From Eledone cirrhosa (Eukaryota), in assembly GCA_964016885.1 (NCBI GenBank), contig OZ024741.1, positions 93,372,001 to 93,436,000 of the forward strand: DNA of 64,000 bases, written 5' to 3'. The translations under genes were made by a program, and so were the position numbers. Below, piece after piece: positions 31,223 to 61,827 of the stretch; position 1 is the first letter of the stretch, and each line of letters starts with the position of its first letter. The notes below the pieces were generated by a model. The model searched no databases and was not told where the DNA came from. It saw only the letters and a program-made list of their open reading frames with translations.

Positions 31223-32268
31223 CAACTTTGAAAAGAAGTCAATTTTAAATTATTTACTTTTACAAAATTATTTTTGTTTACGAAATTTAGTAGATAAATT
31301 ATGTAATATTCATTCATTATTTATTCAAAGTAATCCAACTTATTTTACTAACGGGGTAAAAATATATATTCTGGACGCAATCCTGCAGACCTTCCTTTAT
31401 TATAGTTAAGATAGCAGTATTTCCTCTGTAGAACAATTGGTGGGGGGAAAATATATACTGAAAATCTAGAAAGATTCCAGAATATTAAATTGGTAATTCT
31501 TTACATCAGTACTTCTTTTTAAATCTTAATGTTGATTACCATGTTCTAGTTACTACATTTATTGTATTTCAGATTTCTTTGGTAAAAGTGCATCATTGTG
31601 TATGTGACTGTATCTGTATCTATGATTGTGTGTGTGTTTGTGTGCATAACTATATCTGTACATGATTGTGAGTGTGTGTGTGTGACTGTATTGGTATGTA
31701 TGTTATTGTGTGTGTTTGTGTGAATATATCAGTATATGATTATGTGTGTGTGCCTGTATCTGTATGTATGTGATTGCATGTCTGACTATTCGTATGTATG
31801 TGATTGTGTGTGTAACTATCTGTATGTAAGTAATTATGTGTGTACTTGTAGCTGTGAATTCATTTTTGAAGTTGATTTAGAATACAGTTTAATAAAAAAA
31901 AATTTAAATCTTACTAAATAATAATATTCCATAATCTATTAATTATAATTATTCAAGTAAAGCAATATCATTGCCAAATTTGATAATTAAATAAAGTGTA
32001 TCTTGAGGAATTAATACAATAAACTTTTGATGTTTTTTGCCAATAAACAAGGAGAGAAGCTGGTTGTCTGACCAGACCAAAGAAACAATGTTTCCATTGG
32101 TCTTGCCATTACTGATACTATCTGATGGTTGCAACTCCTGGCAAAGGGAGAAACATGAAATAAAATACAATGCATTAACCAATCCAAGAATTGAACCTAC
32201 AATCTTATGATCATAAGTTCAACATCCTAACCATTAGGTCACATGACTTCAATAAATAAAAAACAAAC

Positions 32269-32443
32269 TTAAGCTGGAAACAAAACTTTTGAAGGATTTA
32301 GGATGTTGTTGGGATCTAGAGCTGTCTTTAATTCCCTCATTAACTGAATGGTGTTCTCATCAAGTTCTTGTGTCAATAAATGTTGTTTGCCAAGACCAAC
32401 TCCATGTTCCCCAGTACATGTGCCATTGAGGGCTAAAGCTCTC
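32269..32443 (-). CDS. LDHD: D-lactate dehydrogenase, last coding exon
   Basis: ttcttttctag|G-RALALNGTCTGEHGVGLGKQHLLTQELDENTIQLMRELKTALDPNNILNPSKVLFPA*; GEHG and DPxNILNP motifs; phase 2 entry. Confidence 0.95.
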
Positions 32444-32826
32444 CTAGAAAAGAATAAAATAGTATTAAGACACAAGTTTTTTAAATCTTAACATCCTGTA
32501 ATGATTAAATATCTAAAAAAAAGGGCTTGTTAATTCAAATGTTTATAGTATCCTAACTAGTGGGCACATCATTGAGAAATTTCCAATATTAGAGTAAAGC
32601 ATTTAATTTTTTTATTTTTTTTATGTATCATCTGCATCCCCCGATCATGAGCTGAATACCTTAACCACTAGGCTGCATGCTTTCACAAAATAATCTCCAG
32701 TTCATCCAAAGTGGAGCACATATAAGATAAATATCTCCTGAATATATGTTACTTCCATGGTGATGATTTACTAAGAACAGGATTTGACTCCAATACTTGA
32801 GGCTTGTGAAACACTCATCAATTATA

Positions 32827-33068
32827 CAGGATGTCCATAAATTATCTTTACAATTTGAAAAATATCAGAATAAAATGGATAACTCTACAGGGTTTATTGA
32901 AAAAGATAGGTAAGCAATGAAAGCCATATTAAAAACATCAGAATACTTCAATGTAGACTCTGATGATTGTATGCAACACATCAAGATGATGCTCAATTTC
33001 TGGCCTTGAATTATGGAGCATCCTCTTATCAATGGTGTAATTTGGAAAGATGATTTATGGACACCTTG
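32827..33068. mobile_element. Tc1/mariner-type MITE (242 bp)
   Basis: TA|CAGGATGTCCATAAATTATCTTT ... AAAGATGATTTATGGACACCTTG|TA. Confidence 0.8.
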
Positions 33069-34398
33069 TATATACATTGAGTCTGCTGTTTCTACATGTG
33101 TTGCGTTAGACCTCTGTCAGTCCTGACATTTGTACCAGTTGTTTAACCAGTGGAACAGCCTGCTCATGAAATGTATGGACAAGTGGCTGAACATTCGATA
33201 GATATGTGTACTCTTAATGTAATTCTCAAGGAAATTCAGTGTGACAAAGCTGGCCGTTTGAATCACCAGTACAACTTATTCTTGCCAACTGAGTTAGCTG
33301 GAGCAACATAAAACAGTTTATTGTTCAAGGACACAACATGCTGCCAGGAATCAAACTAACAAACTTAAGATTGTGAGCCAAACACCCTAACCACTAAGAT
33401 ACATGCCTTCAGATGTCAACTATAGTTTTTCCCTTTTTATAGCTAAGGGAACAGAGCCACTGAAAATAAAGGTTCTTCTTGCAGAAATAAATAATTGTGG
33501 TCAGCTTCAAGATAATATCAACTGACCCTTTCAACTACAAAACCCTAATAAACGTAGATAACTAAATCTCAAATCGACTTTGTGCATAAATGAAAAATAA
33601 AATACTCAAATAATAGTCGATCTCATGTAAAAGTCGACTCTAGTATTTCACGGATAACAGGTCAACATTTGTGGGTCAAGATATCCTGTACGTAGAAATA
33701 ACACTGTTACAAAATCATCATGAATTTAAGGCAAATTTATATTATTGTAAATACATGTCTGAAACTAAAAATGTGTGCCTATCTTACTGTAGCCTGCCCT
33801 TTAGCTGGAATACTTGGTTCTTATAGTAAAATGCCATAGGATGTGTGTTTTGATGTATAGGACCGGTAATATTACTGTAGTTCATTGTGGTTTTGATTTT
33901 ATTTGTTTAGAGAGCTGTTGGGCTTCTGTTATTCATATGGTACTTTGGATTCTAGCTTGAATTTCAAGCCCCTCAAAAGTAGTATCCATATAAGTGTTGA
34001 CCCTATGAATTTAACCTTAAAAAACGGTCTAAAGAATTTGACTTTTACACAAGTATAAACGTATTATAATTTATGATTCTATCCATGGAATTTGAATTCC
34101 TGATGGAATCACAGAGGAACCACCATGATATAGAGTGGGTCCTGGTCATTTAAACTTATTGAAGCCTATTCTTTCCTGAGTCTGAACTCAGCCAATTTCT
34201 TCCAGAGAAAGAGAGAGTGAGATAGAAGAAGAAATGATCTCATTATTGGAGTGGTACTCTATTTATTGGCATTGAAATGATGAAAGGCAAAGTTGACCGT
34301 GACAGGATTTAAATTTAGAGTGTAGAGAACTGGAACAAATATCCCATTTTCTAACGACTTTGCCAGTTCACTACAAAATTTATTATTATGCTAATAAT

Positions 34399-34584
34399 TG
34401 TTTCTACTTTTGGCACAAGGCCAGCAATTTCCCCAGTGCATTACTGGTACTTTATTTTATCAACCCCATAAGGATGAAAGGCAAAGTTAACTTCGGTGGG
34501 ATTTGATCTCAGACCATAAAGGGCAGTAACTATGCTGCAAAGCATGGCGTCCGACCCTTTACCGATACTGCCAATCCACCGCCC
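34399..34584 (-). mobile_element. SINE with 18-bp target-site duplication
   Basis: TATTATTATGCTAATAAT at 34381-34398 and 34585-34602 flanks a full copy. Confidence 0.9.
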
Positions 34585-34709
34585 TATTATTATGCTAATA
34601 ATACATCATCATTAATATTTTATGTCCTCTTTCCAAGACTAGACAAGTTGAAGAGACCTCATCTTGCTCATATATTCCCTATTTGGTATGACTGGATGCT
34701 CTTCCTAAC

Positions 34710-35038
34710 ACCAACTACTTTACAGAGTGAACTGGGTGTATTTTATTGTGGTACATTACATATTGTGGTACATTACAGAATAGTAGGTGTATTTTATTAT
34801 AACACCAACACTACCCCTTTACAGACTGTTCTGGGTGCATTTTATCATTGCACAAGCACTACCACTTTACAAATTGTACTTGGTGAATTGTATTGTAACA
34901 CCAGCACTATCACTTTACAGAGTGTACTGAGTGCATTTTATCATGGCACCTGCACTGCCACTTTACAGAGTGTACTAGGTGCATTTTATTGGGGCACCAA
35001 CACAACCACTTTACAGAGTGTACTGGGCGCATTTTATA
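34710..35038 (-). repeat. Degenerate 48-bp tandem array of an RTE/SINE motif
   Basis: Units like ACCACTTTACAGAGTGTACTGGGTGCATTTTATCATGGCACCAGCACT; produces the spurious 16-aa repeat ORF 34648-35043. Confidence 0.8.
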
Positions 35039-35089
35039 TGTAGTAGTTATTTAATGACTATTACTCAATTTCATGTACTGAATACTCAC

Positions 35090-35201
35090 ATAGTAATTTT
35101 ATCAGTAGTTTCCAATACTAATCTTAGTTCATTTTGATCATTGGGGTCAAAAACAAATGTAGCATGAACATTTCCATCACCAACATGGCCAACGATAGAA
35201 C
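35090..35201 (-). CDS. LDHD: LDHD active-site exon, copy B (alternative)
   Basis: ctttccttttctag|GT-SIVGHVGDGNVHATFVFDPNDQNELRLVLETTDKIT-AT|gtgagt; 112 nt, phase 1 to 2, no stop. Confidence 0.88.
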
Positions 35202-35239
35202 CTAGAAAAGGAAAGCAACTAATATAGAAATGCACTCAC

Positions 35240-35351
35240 TTTGCCATACGATTGGCTAAATCGGCAACTATTTGCTTCTCCTCAGGCTTGTCTGATGTTA
35301 CTGGGAAAAACACGTGGAAATTGCCATCACCAACATGACCAACAATTGGGC
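35240..35351 (-). CDS. LDHD: LDHD active-site exon, copy A (alternative)
   Basis: tttcattttccaag|GC-PIVGHVGDGNFHVFFPVTSDKPEEKQIVADLANRMA-AA|gtgagt; 112 nt, phase 1 to 2, no stop. Confidence 0.92.
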
Positions 35352-35414
35352 CTTGGAAAATGAAATTTAATTGAGTGATTACATGCATACATACATAGGT
35401 ATTTTATATACATA

Positions 35415-35790
35415 TTTTAGAAGTGAGCATGCTTCAATGGATGTATAATTTTAATGTGCATGAATAATGAAGCATAGATGAGCTGGGAGAAAAACTGGGA
35501 TTAAGAGGAATCAAATATAGTGTGCAAAAGAGAAGACAATGCTAGAATGGATAAGTGATACATATGGATGATGTTTGCTGCATAAAGAAGTGTCAAGAAA
35601 TCCTAGTAGAAGATAGCTGCAATAGAGGAAGACCAAAGAAGACTTGGGAAAAGGTGGTGAGAACTGATCTCACATTGCTGAAGTTCACAAAGAAGATGAT
35701 GGAGGAACATAACAAATGGAGGGATGTTGTGTTGGAAAAGACCTGCCCAACCCATACAAGCATGGAATAGCGGGTGTAAAATAATAATGT
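35415..35790 (+). mobile_element. RTE 3' fragment
   Basis: CIKKCQEILVE...RGRPKKTWEKVV and 3' end CCCAACCCATACAAGCATGGAA. Confidence 0.75.
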
Positions 35791-35848
35791 TTAAAATGTA
35801 ACTGAGAAATTACTTATATACATATTATATTTTATATATATATATATA

Positions 35849-38800
35849 TCATCATCATCATCATCATCAACGTTTAACGTCTATCTTCCATGCTAGCATG
35901 GGTTTAGACGGGAATTGTCCTACTTGAGGCAAGATTGGTCGGGTGACCATGTCTCGCTCATATAGGGCTGTCTGATAGGTTTTCTACGGCTGGATGCCCT
36001 TCCTAATACCAACCATGTTTACAGTGTGGAACTGGGGGGTTTTTACCGTGTTACCTACACGGCCACATTGTAGTGTGGACTGTGTTTTTTTGTCGTGACA
36101 CCTACACGACCTAATTTATTTTAGACTGGATGTTGTGGTACCAACATAACTTTATATATATATATATCATCATCATCATCTTCGTTTAACGTCCACTTTC
36201 CACGCTAGCATGGGTTAGACGGGAGTTGTCCCACTTGAGGCAAGGTTTGGTCGGGTGACCGTGTCTCGCTCATATAGGACTATCTGGCAGGTTTTCTATG
36301 GCTGGATGCCCTTCCTAACACCAACCACATTTACAGTGTGGAACTGGGAACTTTTTACCATGTTACCTACACGGCCACATTACAGCGTGGACTGTGTTTT
36401 TTTCTCGTGACACCTACACGATCTCGATCTCATTTATCTCATTTATTTGGACTGGACGATGTGGTACCAACTTTACAGAGAGAGGGTGGTGTTGGTGGAA
36501 GTAGGAGGATAGGGTAGGGGTAGTAGATTGGGGTGTATATTTGGTTAAGAGGTGCCTACTGACTGTAGGTTTCGCTTTGTACATAGGCAAGGCGGGTCTT
36601 CTGTATTACTGCGTAGCGCCAAAGATCTCGGTCCAATGACATTGTCTTAGAGAGGTGCAAGTGTGTAAGGTCGGAATTTATCAGATCGTCCCAGGTTTTT
36701 CTGGGTCTACCTACTCTGTAACTACCATCAATTTTGATCGCCCTGCACTTTTTTATACAGCTGTCGCCTTTCATGCGCATCACGTGGCCATACCAACGTA
36801 GTCTTCTCTCGAGTAAACAGCATCTGATCCCTCTTATTCCTAATTTCTCACTTAGTTCACTTATGCTTTGCCGTTGACGTATATTACTATTACACATCCA
36901 ACGGAGCATGCATGCTTTGTTCCTTTCCAGTCTACGCAAGTCCTCTGCACGCAATGCCCATGTCTCACTGCCATGTAGCATTGCTGTTCGTATACAAGCA
37001 TCATACAATCTATCTTTCATTTTTAGAGAGAAACCTTTTGTGGCCAACAGCGGTATAAGCTCTCTGAACTTTTTCCATCCCGTTCTGACTCTGGCTACTG
37101 TACTTTCAGAACACCCTCCAACACTGCTGATTTCGTCACCCAGGTAACGGAAAGTGTCTACTATTTCTATAGAACCATCTGTGCAATAGAAGGGGCTAGT
37201 ATGTTGTAGACACTTGCTACCTATTTCCCTGAGGGTACCTGTGCCTTATTTTCCTTTCTACAAACTAGGACTTTAGTCTTAGACAAGTTAACTTTAAGGC
37301 CTTTTGATTCTAGGCCATGCTTCCATGTTTGGAATTTCTTTTTTAATTCAGCCATTGATTCAGCTATGAGCGTTAGGTCATCTGCGTATAGGAGTTCCCA
37401 TGGGCAGCCGGTCTTGAACTCCTCTGTTATAGCCTGAAGGGCAATAATAAATAGGAGGGGGCTAAGGACAGAGCCTTGGTGAACACCAACTTTTACACTA
37501 AATTCTTCACAATATTCATTGTTAATTCTAACCTTACTGACTGTTTCATTATACATAGCTTGTATAGCTCTCACAAGCCATTCATCTACACCTAGTTTTC
37601 TAAGAGCCCATCAGATCATGGAGCGGGGGGACTCTGTCAAAGGCTTTTTCCAGGTCTACAAAAGCTAAGTAGAGGGGTTTACTTTTAGCTAGGTACTTAT
37701 CTTGTAGTTGTCGTATAAGAAAAAGAGTGTCTGTGGTACTTTTACCTGTCACAAACCCAAACTGCCTTTCATCTAGATCAATTCGCTCTCTGATTAGTTG
37801 CACTATAACTCTTTCTATGACTTTCATGACCTGGTCAACTAACTTAATGCCTCTATAGTTTCCTCTATCTAGAGCATCTCCCTTACCCTTGTAGCAGTTA
37901 ATAATGATGCTGTTACGCCAATCTTTTGGTATGTCCCCATTCTGTATTACTTGGTTAACTATACGGGTGACCATAGTATGTCCCACCATTCCAGATGCCT
38001 TCAACATGTCAGCAACTATCTCCGAAGGTCCAGCTCCCTTGCCTGTCTTCATATCTTTGATTGCCTTACTTATTATACTACCTTTAACTTGCACCGCTGG
38101 TCCTTCTATTGGATCGATTTGGGGCAGACTATCTTTTTCCCACTTATTCTCTTCATTTAATAGTCTCTCGTAGTGACACTTCCAGGTATCTTCTTATCAG
38201 TACACCGTTATCATTACGGACACACTTCTCCCCGACAATATCACAGTTTTCCTTGACACATTGTCTAGCAATCCTGAACACCTCGCGTTTTTGGTCCTCA
38301 CGTGTTAGAACATGCTTGAACTTTCTTTCCTCTGCTTCCCTTTTTGCAAGGTACACTTGTCTCCTAGCTTTTCTCCTGGCCACTTGATAGTGCTCTCTAC
38401 TTCCCCCATTCTGCCATTCTTTCCAAGCCTGCTTTTTGGCCTTAATTGTCTCTTCCACCTTACTGTTCTACCACCAAGTTACTCTCCTCCTGCCAATAGG
38501 TCTGCTCCAGCCACAGATTTCATCCGTAGCTTTTAGCAGGTTCACTTTCAAGAATTGCCACTGTTCCTCTATATCGCACGTCTCTAATTGCTCTTCCTTA
38601 TTGTCAAAGGCATCAAGTAATAAGCTTTTAAATTTGTCACTGGCTATGGGATACTTCAACTTCCATATTCTTCTCCTCAAGGTAGGCCTCCTCTGTCGTC
38701 GAGTACGTCTATTCCTGACTGTGAGGTCACTAACTACTAGGCTATGTTGGGAGGTGCATTCTTCACGGAGGAGGGATTTAGTGTTTACAACAGACACTTT

Positions 38801-39052
38801 GTCCTGTCTTCTAGTAAGGATATAATCTATCTGGCTGGTGCGTTCCCCTGATCTATAGGTGATCAAGTGGTTTTCACGTTTTTTGAAGTTTGTGTTACAG
38901 ATAGTTAGGTTATTGGCGTCACAGAATTCCAGGATTCTGAAGCCTTCCTCATTTCTATTTCCAAACTCACAGCCTCCATGGATTCCATCATAGCCATCAC
39001 TATGTTGTCCAACATGGCCGTTTAGATCGCCAGCAATAATTAGGTAGTCGCT
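35849..39052 (-). mobile_element. RTE LINE copy A, 3' portion, with tandemly duplicated 3' tail
   Basis: APE (IAGDLNGHVG, SQIDYIL), RT (DLEKAFDRV, GVHQGSVLSP, YADD), C-terminus to 36556. 3' UTR and (ATG)n tail occur twice (about 35849-36150 and 36166-36472). Confidence 0.92.
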
Positions 39053-42050
39053 TACGCACCCCAATCAGGGCTGTCAGACGAACTTAAGGATAGGTTTTAC
39101 GAGTCCCTAATGCACACTACTGCTCTAACAGACGACAATGACTTCCTAATCATTGCAGGAGATTTTAACGGACACGTAGGTAAACACTGCGATGGCTTCA
39201 ATAGAGTACATGGAGGCCATGGGGTTGGCACAAGGAATGAGGAAGGATTCAGACTTCTAGAATTCTGCGACGCCAATGACATGTCGATATGTAACACAAA
39301 CTTTAAAAAACCCGACAACCACCTGATCACCTATAGATCAGAGGAGCACTCTAGTCAGTTAGATTTTATCTTCATCAGAGGACGTGACAGATGGACGGTC
39401 GTAAACACAAAAGCCTTCCCTAGTGAGGAATGTACATCCCAACATAGCTTAGTTGTCAGCGACCTCACGGTCAGAACTAGACGAACCCAGAAACAGAGGC
39501 CAACCTGGAGAAGAAAGATCTGGAAGCTGAAAGTCCCCTCAACCAGTAACAGATTTAAAGATATTTTACTCAACGCCTACGACAGTAAAGAAGAACAGAT
39601 AGAGACATTTAATGTAGAAGAGAACTGGGAGTTCCTAAAAAATAATTTACTAGAGGCGACGGATGAGGTCTGTGGCTGGAGTAAGACCTCAAGCAGGAGG
39701 AGAGTGACTTGGTGGTGGAACAATAAGGTAGATGAAGCAGTTAAGGCCAAGAGACAGGCATAGAAAGAATGGAAGAACAAGGGGAGCAGGGTACATTACA
39801 TACATAGAGACCAAGAGGGAAGCTAGGCGACAAGTATACTTAGCTAGGAGGGAAGCAGAGGATAGAAAATTCAAGCATGTTTTGCAACGTGAAGACCAGA
39901 AACAGGAGGTATTCAAGATTGCGAGGCAGTTTGTCAGAGATAGTTGTGATGTCATTGGAGAGAAGTGTATCCGGAATGATGAAGGTGAGCTTGCCCTCAC
40001 AAGTGCTGAGAAGAAAGATGCATGGAAGAGTCATTATGATAGATTACTAAATGAGGAGAATGCATGGGAAGAAGAGACCCTACCCCAAGTAGACCCTATA
40101 GAGGGACCAGCAGTACAAGTCAGCAGCAGCGTAGTAAGTAAGGCAATCAAAGATATGAAGATGGGGAAGGCAACCGGTCCATCGGGTATAGCTGCCGAGA
40201 TGCTGAAGGCATCTGGGTCTGTAGGTCACACTATAACCACACGTATCGTTAACCAGGTAATACTAGAAGGTGCCATACCAAAAGATTGGTGCAGTAGCAT
40301 CATTGTCAACTGTTACAAAGGTAAAGGTGATGCACTAGATAGAGGAAACTATAGAGGTATAAAGTTGATGGACCAGGTCATGAAAGTAACAGAAAGAGTT
40401 ATAGCACAGCTGATTAGGGACCGGGTTAAAATAGACGAGATGCAATTTGGGTTTGTACCAGGAAGAGGCACCACTGATGCCCTCTTCCTTGTGAGGCAAT
40501 TACAGGAAAAGTACCTAGCTAAAAGTAAGCCACTCTACTTGGCATTTGTCGACCTTGAGAAAGCCTTTGACAGAGTTCCACATGCTGTAATCTGGTGGGC
40601 TCTTAGAAAACTAGGAGTAGATGAATGGCTTGTGAAAGCGGTACAAGCCATGTATAGGGGAGCAGTCAGCAAAGTTAGGATTAGCAATGAGTATAGCGAG
40701 GAATTTAGCGTACAGGTTGGGGTCCACCAGGGCTCTGTTCTTAGCCCTCTCCTGTTCATCATAGTCATGCAGGCAATAACGGAGGAGTTTAAGACCGGAT
40801 GCCCATGGGAACTCCTGTATGCTGATGACCTCGCACTCATAGCTGAATCTATGGTAGAACTAGAGAATAAATTCCAAACTTGGAAGCAGGGACTAGAAAG
40901 AAAGGGTCTCAAAGTCAACATGACAAAGTCCTTGTAAGTAGACGAGAAAACAGAACCCAGATCCCCTCAGGGAAATGGCCTTGCTCAGTATGTAGGAAAG
41001 GTGTAGGTAGGAACTCCATTCTCTGCCCCAAATGCAAACAATGGGTACACAAGAGATGTAGCGGGATCTCAGGAAGCTTAATTAAGAATGTAGGATTCAC
41101 ATGCAGCAAACAGCCACAGGAAACAAGTACCACCAATCTCTGGGAGGGCCCTGTAGAAACAGTAGACAGCTTCTGCTACCTAGGTGACCGAATTAGCAGC
41201 GGAGGTGGGTGTTCAGAAAGTACAATAACTAGGGTAAGAACGGGATGGAAGAAGTTTAGGGAACTACTACCACTGTTAGCTGCAAAAGCTTCTCCCTCAG
41301 AATGAAAGGCAGACTGTATGATGCGTGTATCCGAACAGCGATGTTGCATGGTAGTGAGACCTGGGCGCTGAAGGTGGAAGACTTACGTAGATTAGAGAGA
41401 AACGAAGCCTGCATGCTCCGATGGATGTGTAACAGTAATATACGTGAACGACAAAGCATAAATGAATTGAGAGAGAGACTGAGCATAAGAGGAATCAAAT
41501 GCTGTGTGTAGGAGAGGCGGTTGCGCTGGTATGGACATGTGATGCGTATGAAGGATGACAGCTGCATAAAAAGGTGCAGAGCACTAGAAGTTGATGGAAA
41601 CCGCGGAGTGGGGAGACCCAAGATGACCTAGGATGAGGTGATAAAAGCCGACCTTACCCAATTGCACCTCTCAAAGACAATGACACACGACCGTGACTTC
41701 TGGCGTCACGCAGTAATACAGAGTACCCGACCTCCCATGGGTACAAGCTGAAGCATATAGACAATATACCCCCACACCCCCCACCGCAAGGTGGTCGTGG
41801 AGGTGCCACGGCAAAAAAGCACCCAGCCCACACTGTAAAGTGGACGTGTAGGCGCCACGAAAAAGCACCCAGCACTCACTGTAAATGAGGTTGGTGTTAG
41901 GAAGGGCATCCAGCTGTAGAAATCAAGCCAAATCAGTTCCTGTATGAGCAAGGCATGGTCAGCCGACCAGAAACTGCCCACAACAGGACAACCCGTCTAA
42001 CCCATGCTAGCGTGGAAGAACGGACGTAAAACGGTGATGATGATGATGAT
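39050..42050 (+). mobile_element. RTE LINE copy B, 5'-truncated, inserted antisense into copy A
   Basis: Starts at AYAPQSG; APE, RT (YADD), PHD-like finger, 3' UTR and (GAT)n tail at 42036-42050. Confidence 0.93.
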
Positions 42051-43356: not shown

Positions 43357-43447
43357 CTATCATTCCTGATTCTTCTATGTCTTCTTTGGTTTTGACAATT
43401 ATTTCTGGCAGATGAGATATCGGTACACACACATCTGTGCAGTATGG
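43357..43447 (-). CDS. LDHD: LDHD exon
   Basis: cttcattttag|[31 protein letters not shown]|gtaaac; 91 nt, phase 0 to 1. Confidence 0.95.
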
Positions 43448-46573: not shown

Positions 46574-46701
46574 CTTAGAGCCAGGTCGAAGAGCTGTGCA
46601 TGCATACAACATGTCATGCCGAGCTCTCCATAACTTGTTTCTTTCATCCCTGTCTGTTGCCCATGTAAATTCAGAACCTTCATTAGAGCTGGCAATTTCT
46701 C
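46574..46701 (-). CDS. LDHD: LDHD exon
   Basis: ctttcaaaag|GA-EIASSNEGSEFTWATDRDERNKLWRARHDMLYACTALRPGSK|gtaaat; 128 nt, phase 1 to 0; LWxARH motif. Confidence 0.95.
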
Positions 46702-60653: not shown

Positions 60654-60782
60654 GGACTGTTTCCACTTGATTATTCAATGATTCTGCAGCACCATGGAAC
60701 TCCAAGAAAAGAGTTGGTGCCACTGTTAGAGAGAGTTTACTGAATTTGTTGCAAGCATCAACCATAACATCATCCATGAATT
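60654..60782 (-). CDS. LDHD: LDHD exon
   Basis: tttctttctacatag|[45 protein letters not shown]|gtaagt; 129 nt, phase 1 to 1; PTLFLEFHG motif. Confidence 0.95.
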
Positions 60783-61733: not shown

Positions 61734-61827
61734 CAATTCTTGCTATGGGAATACCACACTGTAAGGTCATCACTGTAGTGTCTACTGCAGCTTGTACAGT
61801 GGGAAAATGACAAACAGCCGAAATTGT
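61734..61827 (-). CDS. LDHD: LDHD exon (gene continues beyond the right edge)
   Basis: tttctcattacag|TISAVCHFPTVQAAVDTTVMTLQCGIPIARI-G|gtatgt; 94 nt, phase 0 to 1. Confidence 0.95.

Follow-up and report, generated by a model that had tools for sequence, protein, structure and literature searches.

A tandem pair of active-site exons in a mollusc LDHD gene, probably spliced as alternatives

The question raised by this locus is whether an enzyme gene that carries an active-site exon twice, with 38 nt between the copies, uses the two as alternatives, and in what the resulting enzymes would differ. The DNA analyzed, hereafter the window, is a stretch of 64,000 nt from the octopod Eledone cirrhosa; by its coding content it holds the 3' half of a single-copy gene for LDHD, the mitochondrial FAD/Mn D-2-hydroxyacid dehydrogenase. 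The features discussed are listed below, residues being numbered as in mouse LDHD.

35240..35351, minus strand: alternative exon A, 112 nt, phase 1-2; carries the His398 and His405 equivalents, Pro394, Phe407 and Pro409
35090..35201, minus strand: alternative exon B, 112 nt, phase 1-2; His398 and His405 equivalents kept; Ser394, Val404 and Thr407
35202..35239, minus strand: spacer intron between A and B, 38 nt, with an in-frame TGA if retained
43357..43447, minus strand: constitutive exon upstream of the pair; Cys at the Ser365 position
32269..32443, minus strand: last coding exon; Glu442 and His443 equivalents in GEHG; stop at 32269-32271, transcript to at least 32114
46574..46701, minus strand: constitutive exon; Arg347 equivalent, Leu at mouse Trp351; boundaries taken from the flanks
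60654..60782, minus strand: constitutive LDHD exon, residues about 282-325
61734..61827, minus strand: constitutive LDHD exon, residues about 251-281

Five more exons of the gene lie outside the window, up to G000:C2:93445840. In the 3.0-Gb genome, a full-length LDHD query gave 11 exon matches, which fall in a single locus of 42 kb on C2, the contig of the window, besides two weak matches on C3, and no second LDHD gene or dispersed exon copy was found in this genome search; the weak matches (G000:C3:57740826-57754363, E about 1e-5) probably belong to the D2HGDH paralogue. The constitutive exons of the window match LDHD of Octopus sinensis at about 77-94%, and the closest relatives of the last exon are the LDHD proteins of O. 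sinensis (84%) and Argonauta (76%). A sequence-only reading of the window had called the gene LDHD, and the call was upheld by way of the two O. sinensis forms described below, which match the Pfam families FAD_binding_4 and FAD-oxidase_C and have mouse LDHD as their best solved-structure match (E 1e-197).

Compared with mouse and human LDHD (PDB 8JDC series), the gene has the same Pfam domains and a complete catalytic subsite A, Arg347, His398, His405, Glu442 and His443 being common to both. The mammalian-type subsite B (Val101, Trp351, Ser365, Ile407) was not found: the window gene has Leu101, Leu351, Cys365 and either Phe407 (A) or Thr407 (B), and the exon itself is doubled. Judged from sequence, these differences lower the expectation of the same specificity as in mouse, not that of orthology; the residues are still non-charged, unlike those of D2HGDH.

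The sequence-only reading had described two stop-free exons of 112 nt, both preceded by AG and followed by GTGAGT, both running from phase 1 to phase 2 and each fitting between exons 43357-43447 and 32269-32443; all of this was found again, together with the peptides assigned to them, the 38-nt spacing (35202-35239) and all four synonymous differences in the shared motif. The upstream exon, A and the last exon give an open frame, and so do the upstream exon, B and the last exon, with the same stop in each case. The frame kept by each exon alone is lost with both or with neither, again as had been read: joint splicing of A and B shifts it and brings a stop 87 nt before the last junction, retention of the spacer between them reads AAG-TGA and puts the stop 146 nt before that junction, and skipping of both exons shifts the frame into a stop within the last exon.

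Adjacent, homologous, equal in length and of the same phase, the two exons have the marks of tandem duplicates. Their identity is 13/36 in amino acids and 54/112 in nucleotides, with 30/42 identical in the first part and 24/70 in the last. Chance resemblance was ruled out by a profile made from database proteins only, which over 94 kb (the window plus 30 kb upstream) scored A at E 4.5e-21 and B at E 3.4e-15, the next best match having an E of 1.1; no third copy of the exon was found in this search. When the peptide of exon B was compared with the whole genome, only A and B were among the matches listed (at least two places).

What could keep the two exons apart is the size of the spacer. The other 10 introns located in the LDHD gene measure about 0.8-14 kb, the spacer being some 20 times shorter than the next-shortest of them, and every potential branch-point adenine in its sequence lies at positions 4-20, that is, at most 20 nt from the donor of A; with any of these candidate adenines the distance from donor to branch point stays below about 50 nt. 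A steric limit of ~50 nt has been proposed for this distance, in the parts available of PMC7969005, and since the whole intron has 38 nt, splicing of A to B should be barred, the donor of A and the branch point of B being unusable together. The steric argument made from the window, which set the 38 nt against this threshold, thus holds. With U1 on the donor of A covering the branch region of B, A would be the default, and B would be reached only if A is left undefined. By the 50-55 nt rule of NMD, RNAs that join A and B or retain the spacer would be removed, their stops lying as far upstream as given above, and skipping of both exons would yield a protein that lacks its metal ligands. We regard it as very probable that both exons are functional and that their use is mutually exclusive.

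The arrangement resembles that of exons 4a/4b of OGDH, also a mitochondrial dehydrogenase with duplicated exclusive exons, a donor-to-branch-point distance below ~50 nt and a small intron size held for long; OGDH differs in having distant branch points, a longer intron and a switch of Ca2+ sensitivity (PMC7969005, in the parts available), whereas in the window gene the whole intron is 38 nt long and the exon carries catalytic metal ligands. The RNA folding of the exon pair (z -2.1; 2/100 shuffles equally stable) showed no clear pairing able to explain the choice of exon.

Repeats were also observed on both sides of the pair. A 48-nt tandem array (34786-35037; 5.2 copies, 78% matches) starts ~50 nt downstream of the donor of B and, judged by read depth, is present many times at other places in the genome. 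Within the 8-kb intron that precedes exon A lie two decayed copies of non-LTR retroelements, oriented against each other (36593-41729, RVT_1 matches); they form long inverted arms with about 75-77% identity, which could base-pair in the pre-mRNA.

In O. sinensis both forms are on record, as XP_029641646.1 (X1, A-type) and XP_029641647.1 (X2, B-type), each of 492 aa, with 18 differences that all fall in this exon; exon A of the window shares 26/36 residues with A of O. sinensis, and exon B 22/36 with B. Among the matches listed, 31 named mollusc species had a record, both forms being present in 14, only A in 15 and only B in 2; the count is based on O. sinensis and ten further clusters of the 120 shown (eight of named molluscs, one cephalopod-like and one of a rotifer). 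The species with both forms are O. sinensis, Mya arenaria, Dreissena polymorpha, Gigantopelta aegis, four Mytilus, three Haliotis, Littorina saxatilis, Saccostrea cucullata and Ostrea edulis, and in the isoform pairs of 14/14 every difference is inside this exon, none outside. Taken alone, exon B is found in 16 other species as predicted gene models (XP_, GenBank); such models as a rule rest on RNA-seq. The mollusc-type Logan proteins typed among the matches listed were A-type in 17/17, which suggests that A is the main form in molluscs. The A and B forms each occur in cephalopods, bivalves and gastropods, which bears out the old duplication with both copies kept that had been supposed from the window, and makes it older than that reading could show.

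One metagenome gene call (P0134) opens with what reads, in another frame, as exon A of a bivalve (31/32 residues agree with P0170); about 18 nt past the donor of A it passes into an exon B, the later part of the record being garbled. From its protein letters we infer that so short a spacer also occurs outside octopods. P0131, tried as a further exon A in another frame, was rejected (11/25 at best).

Some records depart from the common pattern. Mya, Mytilus and oyster records (P0277, P0218, P0184, P0308) have an extra residue at the start of B relative to A, so equal length is not universal. In the Haliotis X2 models (P0239, P0296, P0300) the motif, nearly invariant in the other records, is changed to SHAGDGNFH, with Ala407, the longest branch in the tree and both His kept. 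Two X1 models of Dreissena (P0166 and P0278), from different accession series, are one residue apart, which suggests two near-identical LDHD loci or haplotypes.

No paper on alternative exons of LDHD was found in the literature searched; genome-wide MXE tables for molluscs might list the event. PMC10053595 (an RNA editing list), PMC5793162 and PMC12202636, considered as accounts of these exons, proved irrelevant in the parts available. LDHD is absent from the human tandem-exon catalogue as far as the available part of its supplement extends (PMC8373072), and the main text of the mouse LDHD paper, in the part available, does not contain the word 'isoform' (PMC10589216). The remark that no description was known for LDHD needs one qualification, which concerns annotation: RefSeq already has the pair as X1/X2 models, automatic ones that are the orthologous A and B products, and does not label them as mutually exclusive exons. 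No functional description of these mollusc X1/X2 models was found.

In mouse LDHD, the Mn ligands are His398, His405 and Glu442, the substrate ligands are Arg347 and His443, and subsite B, the side-chain pocket, is formed by Val101, Trp351, Ser365 and Ile407. Differences in this pocket account for the specificities of LDHD, D2HGDH and GlcD; W351C costs the mouse enzyme about 90% of its activity, and the human counterpart W374C is a D-lactic acidosis mutation. All this is from the available part of PMC10589216, whose main text, in that part, does not mention an Ile407 mutant. The octopus and mouse proteins align without gaps in this part, which places His398, His405 and residue 407 within the exon. 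The two His that had been said to bind the catalytic metal are those that bind Mn in the mouse structure, and the difference noticed beside the metal ligand, FHVF against VHAT, falls on the pocket residue Ile407.

The A records have Pro394, Phe407 and Pro409 in 52/52. Both His are kept in all 18 B records, in which residue 407 is Leu (13), Ala (4) or Val (1); in B of the window it is Thr. Residue 351 is Leu, Ile or Val in 70/70 mollusc records and Trp in 89/90 fish-type records, these being related and not independent sequences; residue 365 is Ser in 70/70 mollusc records, whereas the window gene has Cys, and residue 101 is Leu in the 10/10 molluscs and 4/4 fish checked. In the mechanism that we propose, molluscs would have exchanged the pocket Trp351 for Leu, Ile or Val, and Phe407 of exon A would refill the pocket, giving a housekeeping enzyme for D-lactate and small substrates. 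The Leu, Ala, Val or Thr407 of exon B would keep the pocket wide, in a minor or tissue-restricted isozyme for larger D-2-hydroxyacids. Phe407 is not strictly a compensation, since one Rotaria gene has Trp351 together with Phe407. The weak conservation of B and its varying residue 407 would agree with relaxed constraint no less than with a particular new substrate. From the residues at 351 and 407 we infer a roomier substrate pocket in the B form, and we lean towards isoforms that also differ in substrate spectrum, with B shifted to larger substrates.

The best-surviving alternative, which we nevertheless hold to be unlikely, is that both exons are functional and exclusive and that what sets the isoforms apart is kinetics, stability, oligomer state or electron-acceptor contact, not substrate. 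Most A/B differences come after the second His, in the loop and helix that follow it, in line with the low identity of the last 70 nt, and the pocket residues of B are not fixed across classes. Against this reading, A fixes three residues on pocket-side strands in every one of its records, one of them a named pocket residue, and Trp351 is lost. On balance we favor, as the best explanation overall, an ancient, sterically enforced exon switch that would give two isozymes, B with the roomier pocket.

Active-site exon swaps by exclusive splicing are known from few enzymes, mostly from vertebrates. The isoforms of ACOX1 and KHK differ in substrate preference. ACOX1, KHK and PKM are metabolic enzymes with homologous alternative exons in or beside the ligand site and catalytic residues in both copies (PMC9741552, in the parts available), and ACOX1 is a flavoenzyme too, like LDHD; they differ from it in being human events in other folds, ACOX1 being dated to Chordata in the available part of the PMC8373072 supplement. 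The LDHD pair appears common to three mollusc classes, sits on a substrate-choice residue and coincides with the mollusc-wide loss of Trp351, and would also amount to a natural experiment in LDHD pocket design. Two D-lactate-oxidizing enzyme forms would bear on the hypoxia physiology of octopus, mussels, oysters and abalone. The isoforms differ in about 20 residues, and gene-level RNA-seq studies would miss a switch at the exon level.

In a bolder version of this explanation, which we think quite improbable, a two-enzyme switch would have existed since the Cambrian, with A as the ordinary D-lactate dehydrogenase and B taking another substrate class (bulky or aromatic D-2-hydroxyacids, even D-configured opines). 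Such opines accumulate in molluscs deprived of oxygen. If B did take opines, this would be a mitochondrial FAD-linked clearance of anaerobic end products, chosen by splicing. Molluscs depend on these end products, which in abalone are opines and lactate (PMC5898262, in the parts available).

Splicing in E. cirrhosa itself was seen in one public run (X4), which is not on record as RNA; a spliced contig shows that it contains mRNA-derived sequence. In the region looked at (32000-35800), this contig 26 (1835 nt, depth 25) has exon A at 1392-1506 and the last exon with 3' UTR at 1507-1835, A being joined to the last exon and B passed over. Exon B was in no transcript of this species among the assembled contigs, where rare forms get lost; the depth of X4 is 0 in the bin 35048-35174, which holds most of exon B, and this was not taken as evidence on the use of B. 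The expression search (4 runs, 1 study) gave no run on record as RNA that covers 35090-35351. The DNA-type runs X1-X3, from one sample that is possibly the source of the assembly, cover 35006-35800 and show no difference from it. Exon B extended by residues from the spacer, when used as a protein query, gave no match.

These data could also be read as saying that exon B is a rarely used relic, functional in the mollusc ancestor and decaying or silent in this octopod. The sole spliced contig uses A; B of the window is farther from its O. sinensis counterpart than A is (22/36 as against 26/36) and has the unusual Val404, Thr407 and Ser394; and the cephalopod records are A-type throughout except O. 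sinensis X2, the short O. bimaculoides models ending just past the upstream exon and being uninformative on the pair. Against this reading, B is of full length and free of indels and stops, with AG and GTGAGT intact and both His kept amid synonymous changes; a B model also exists for O. sinensis, and B is intact in three classes. We consider the relic very unlikely.

As to the history of the preferred switch, between-class identity is 0.63 for A-A (38 pairs), 0.41 for B-B and 0.42 for A-B. An exon tree (36 columns, 38 rows) was built with 16 A exons from four classes, chiton included, and 12 B exons. The 16 A exons form one side of a branch (support 84/95, unstarred); the 12 B exons are spread among the single exons of fish, mite, rotifer and fungi, and there is no B group. 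Because of this placement, B appears ancestral and A a mollusc innovation. AU tests reject no alternative (B clade p 0.28, cephalopod A+B p 0.10, window A+B p 0.25), and since the B exons are ungrouped as well, it is by parsimony that one tandem duplication probably preceded the split of cephalopods, bivalves and gastropods. The least probable alternative, repeated duplication of the exon (once per class) with the A likeness convergent or that of an ancestral mollusc exon, could appeal to the missing B clade, to the AU tests that leave cephalopod A+B standing and to a eukaryote that seems to own a separate tandem copy (P0130, below), and is set aside as very improbable because all A exons group together, because B is closer to the exon that outgroups such as fish and mite have in one copy than to A, so that copies derived from A would each need reversion, and because A is upstream of B both in the window and in the bivalve read-through P0134.

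Outside molluscs, no exon pair was found in 90 fish-type representatives, Varroa and Rotaria, P0130 being the exception. Several candidates were rejected: the Rotaria records in which the motif occurs twice are fusions of two gene copies, the X1/X2 models of Varroa differ at the N-terminus only, and P0129 (Nucella, 10 matching stretches), P0135 and P0138, tried as exon arrays, are repeat proteins. When metagenomes were scanned for two tandem motifs at a distance of 143-173 nt, L005 was the only match, and this is a simple repeat; P0130 was missed by the scan.

P0130, P0143, P0144 and P0151, metagenome gene calls from a cluster of 12, have two tandem copies of this LDHD exon in their protein letters, 53 codons apart (112 + about 47 nt), with the introns read through and a donor-like junction at the end of each copy. 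With copy 1 joined directly to the upstream exon, use of copy 2 would require an internal donor where the lost intron had been. This is possibly an independent duplication of the same exon; if so, the exon would be a recurrent point for retuning the enzyme family. Residue 407 is Gln in copy 1 and Ile in copy 2, residue 351 is Tyr, and the identity of P0130 to mollusc LDHD is about 53% at best.
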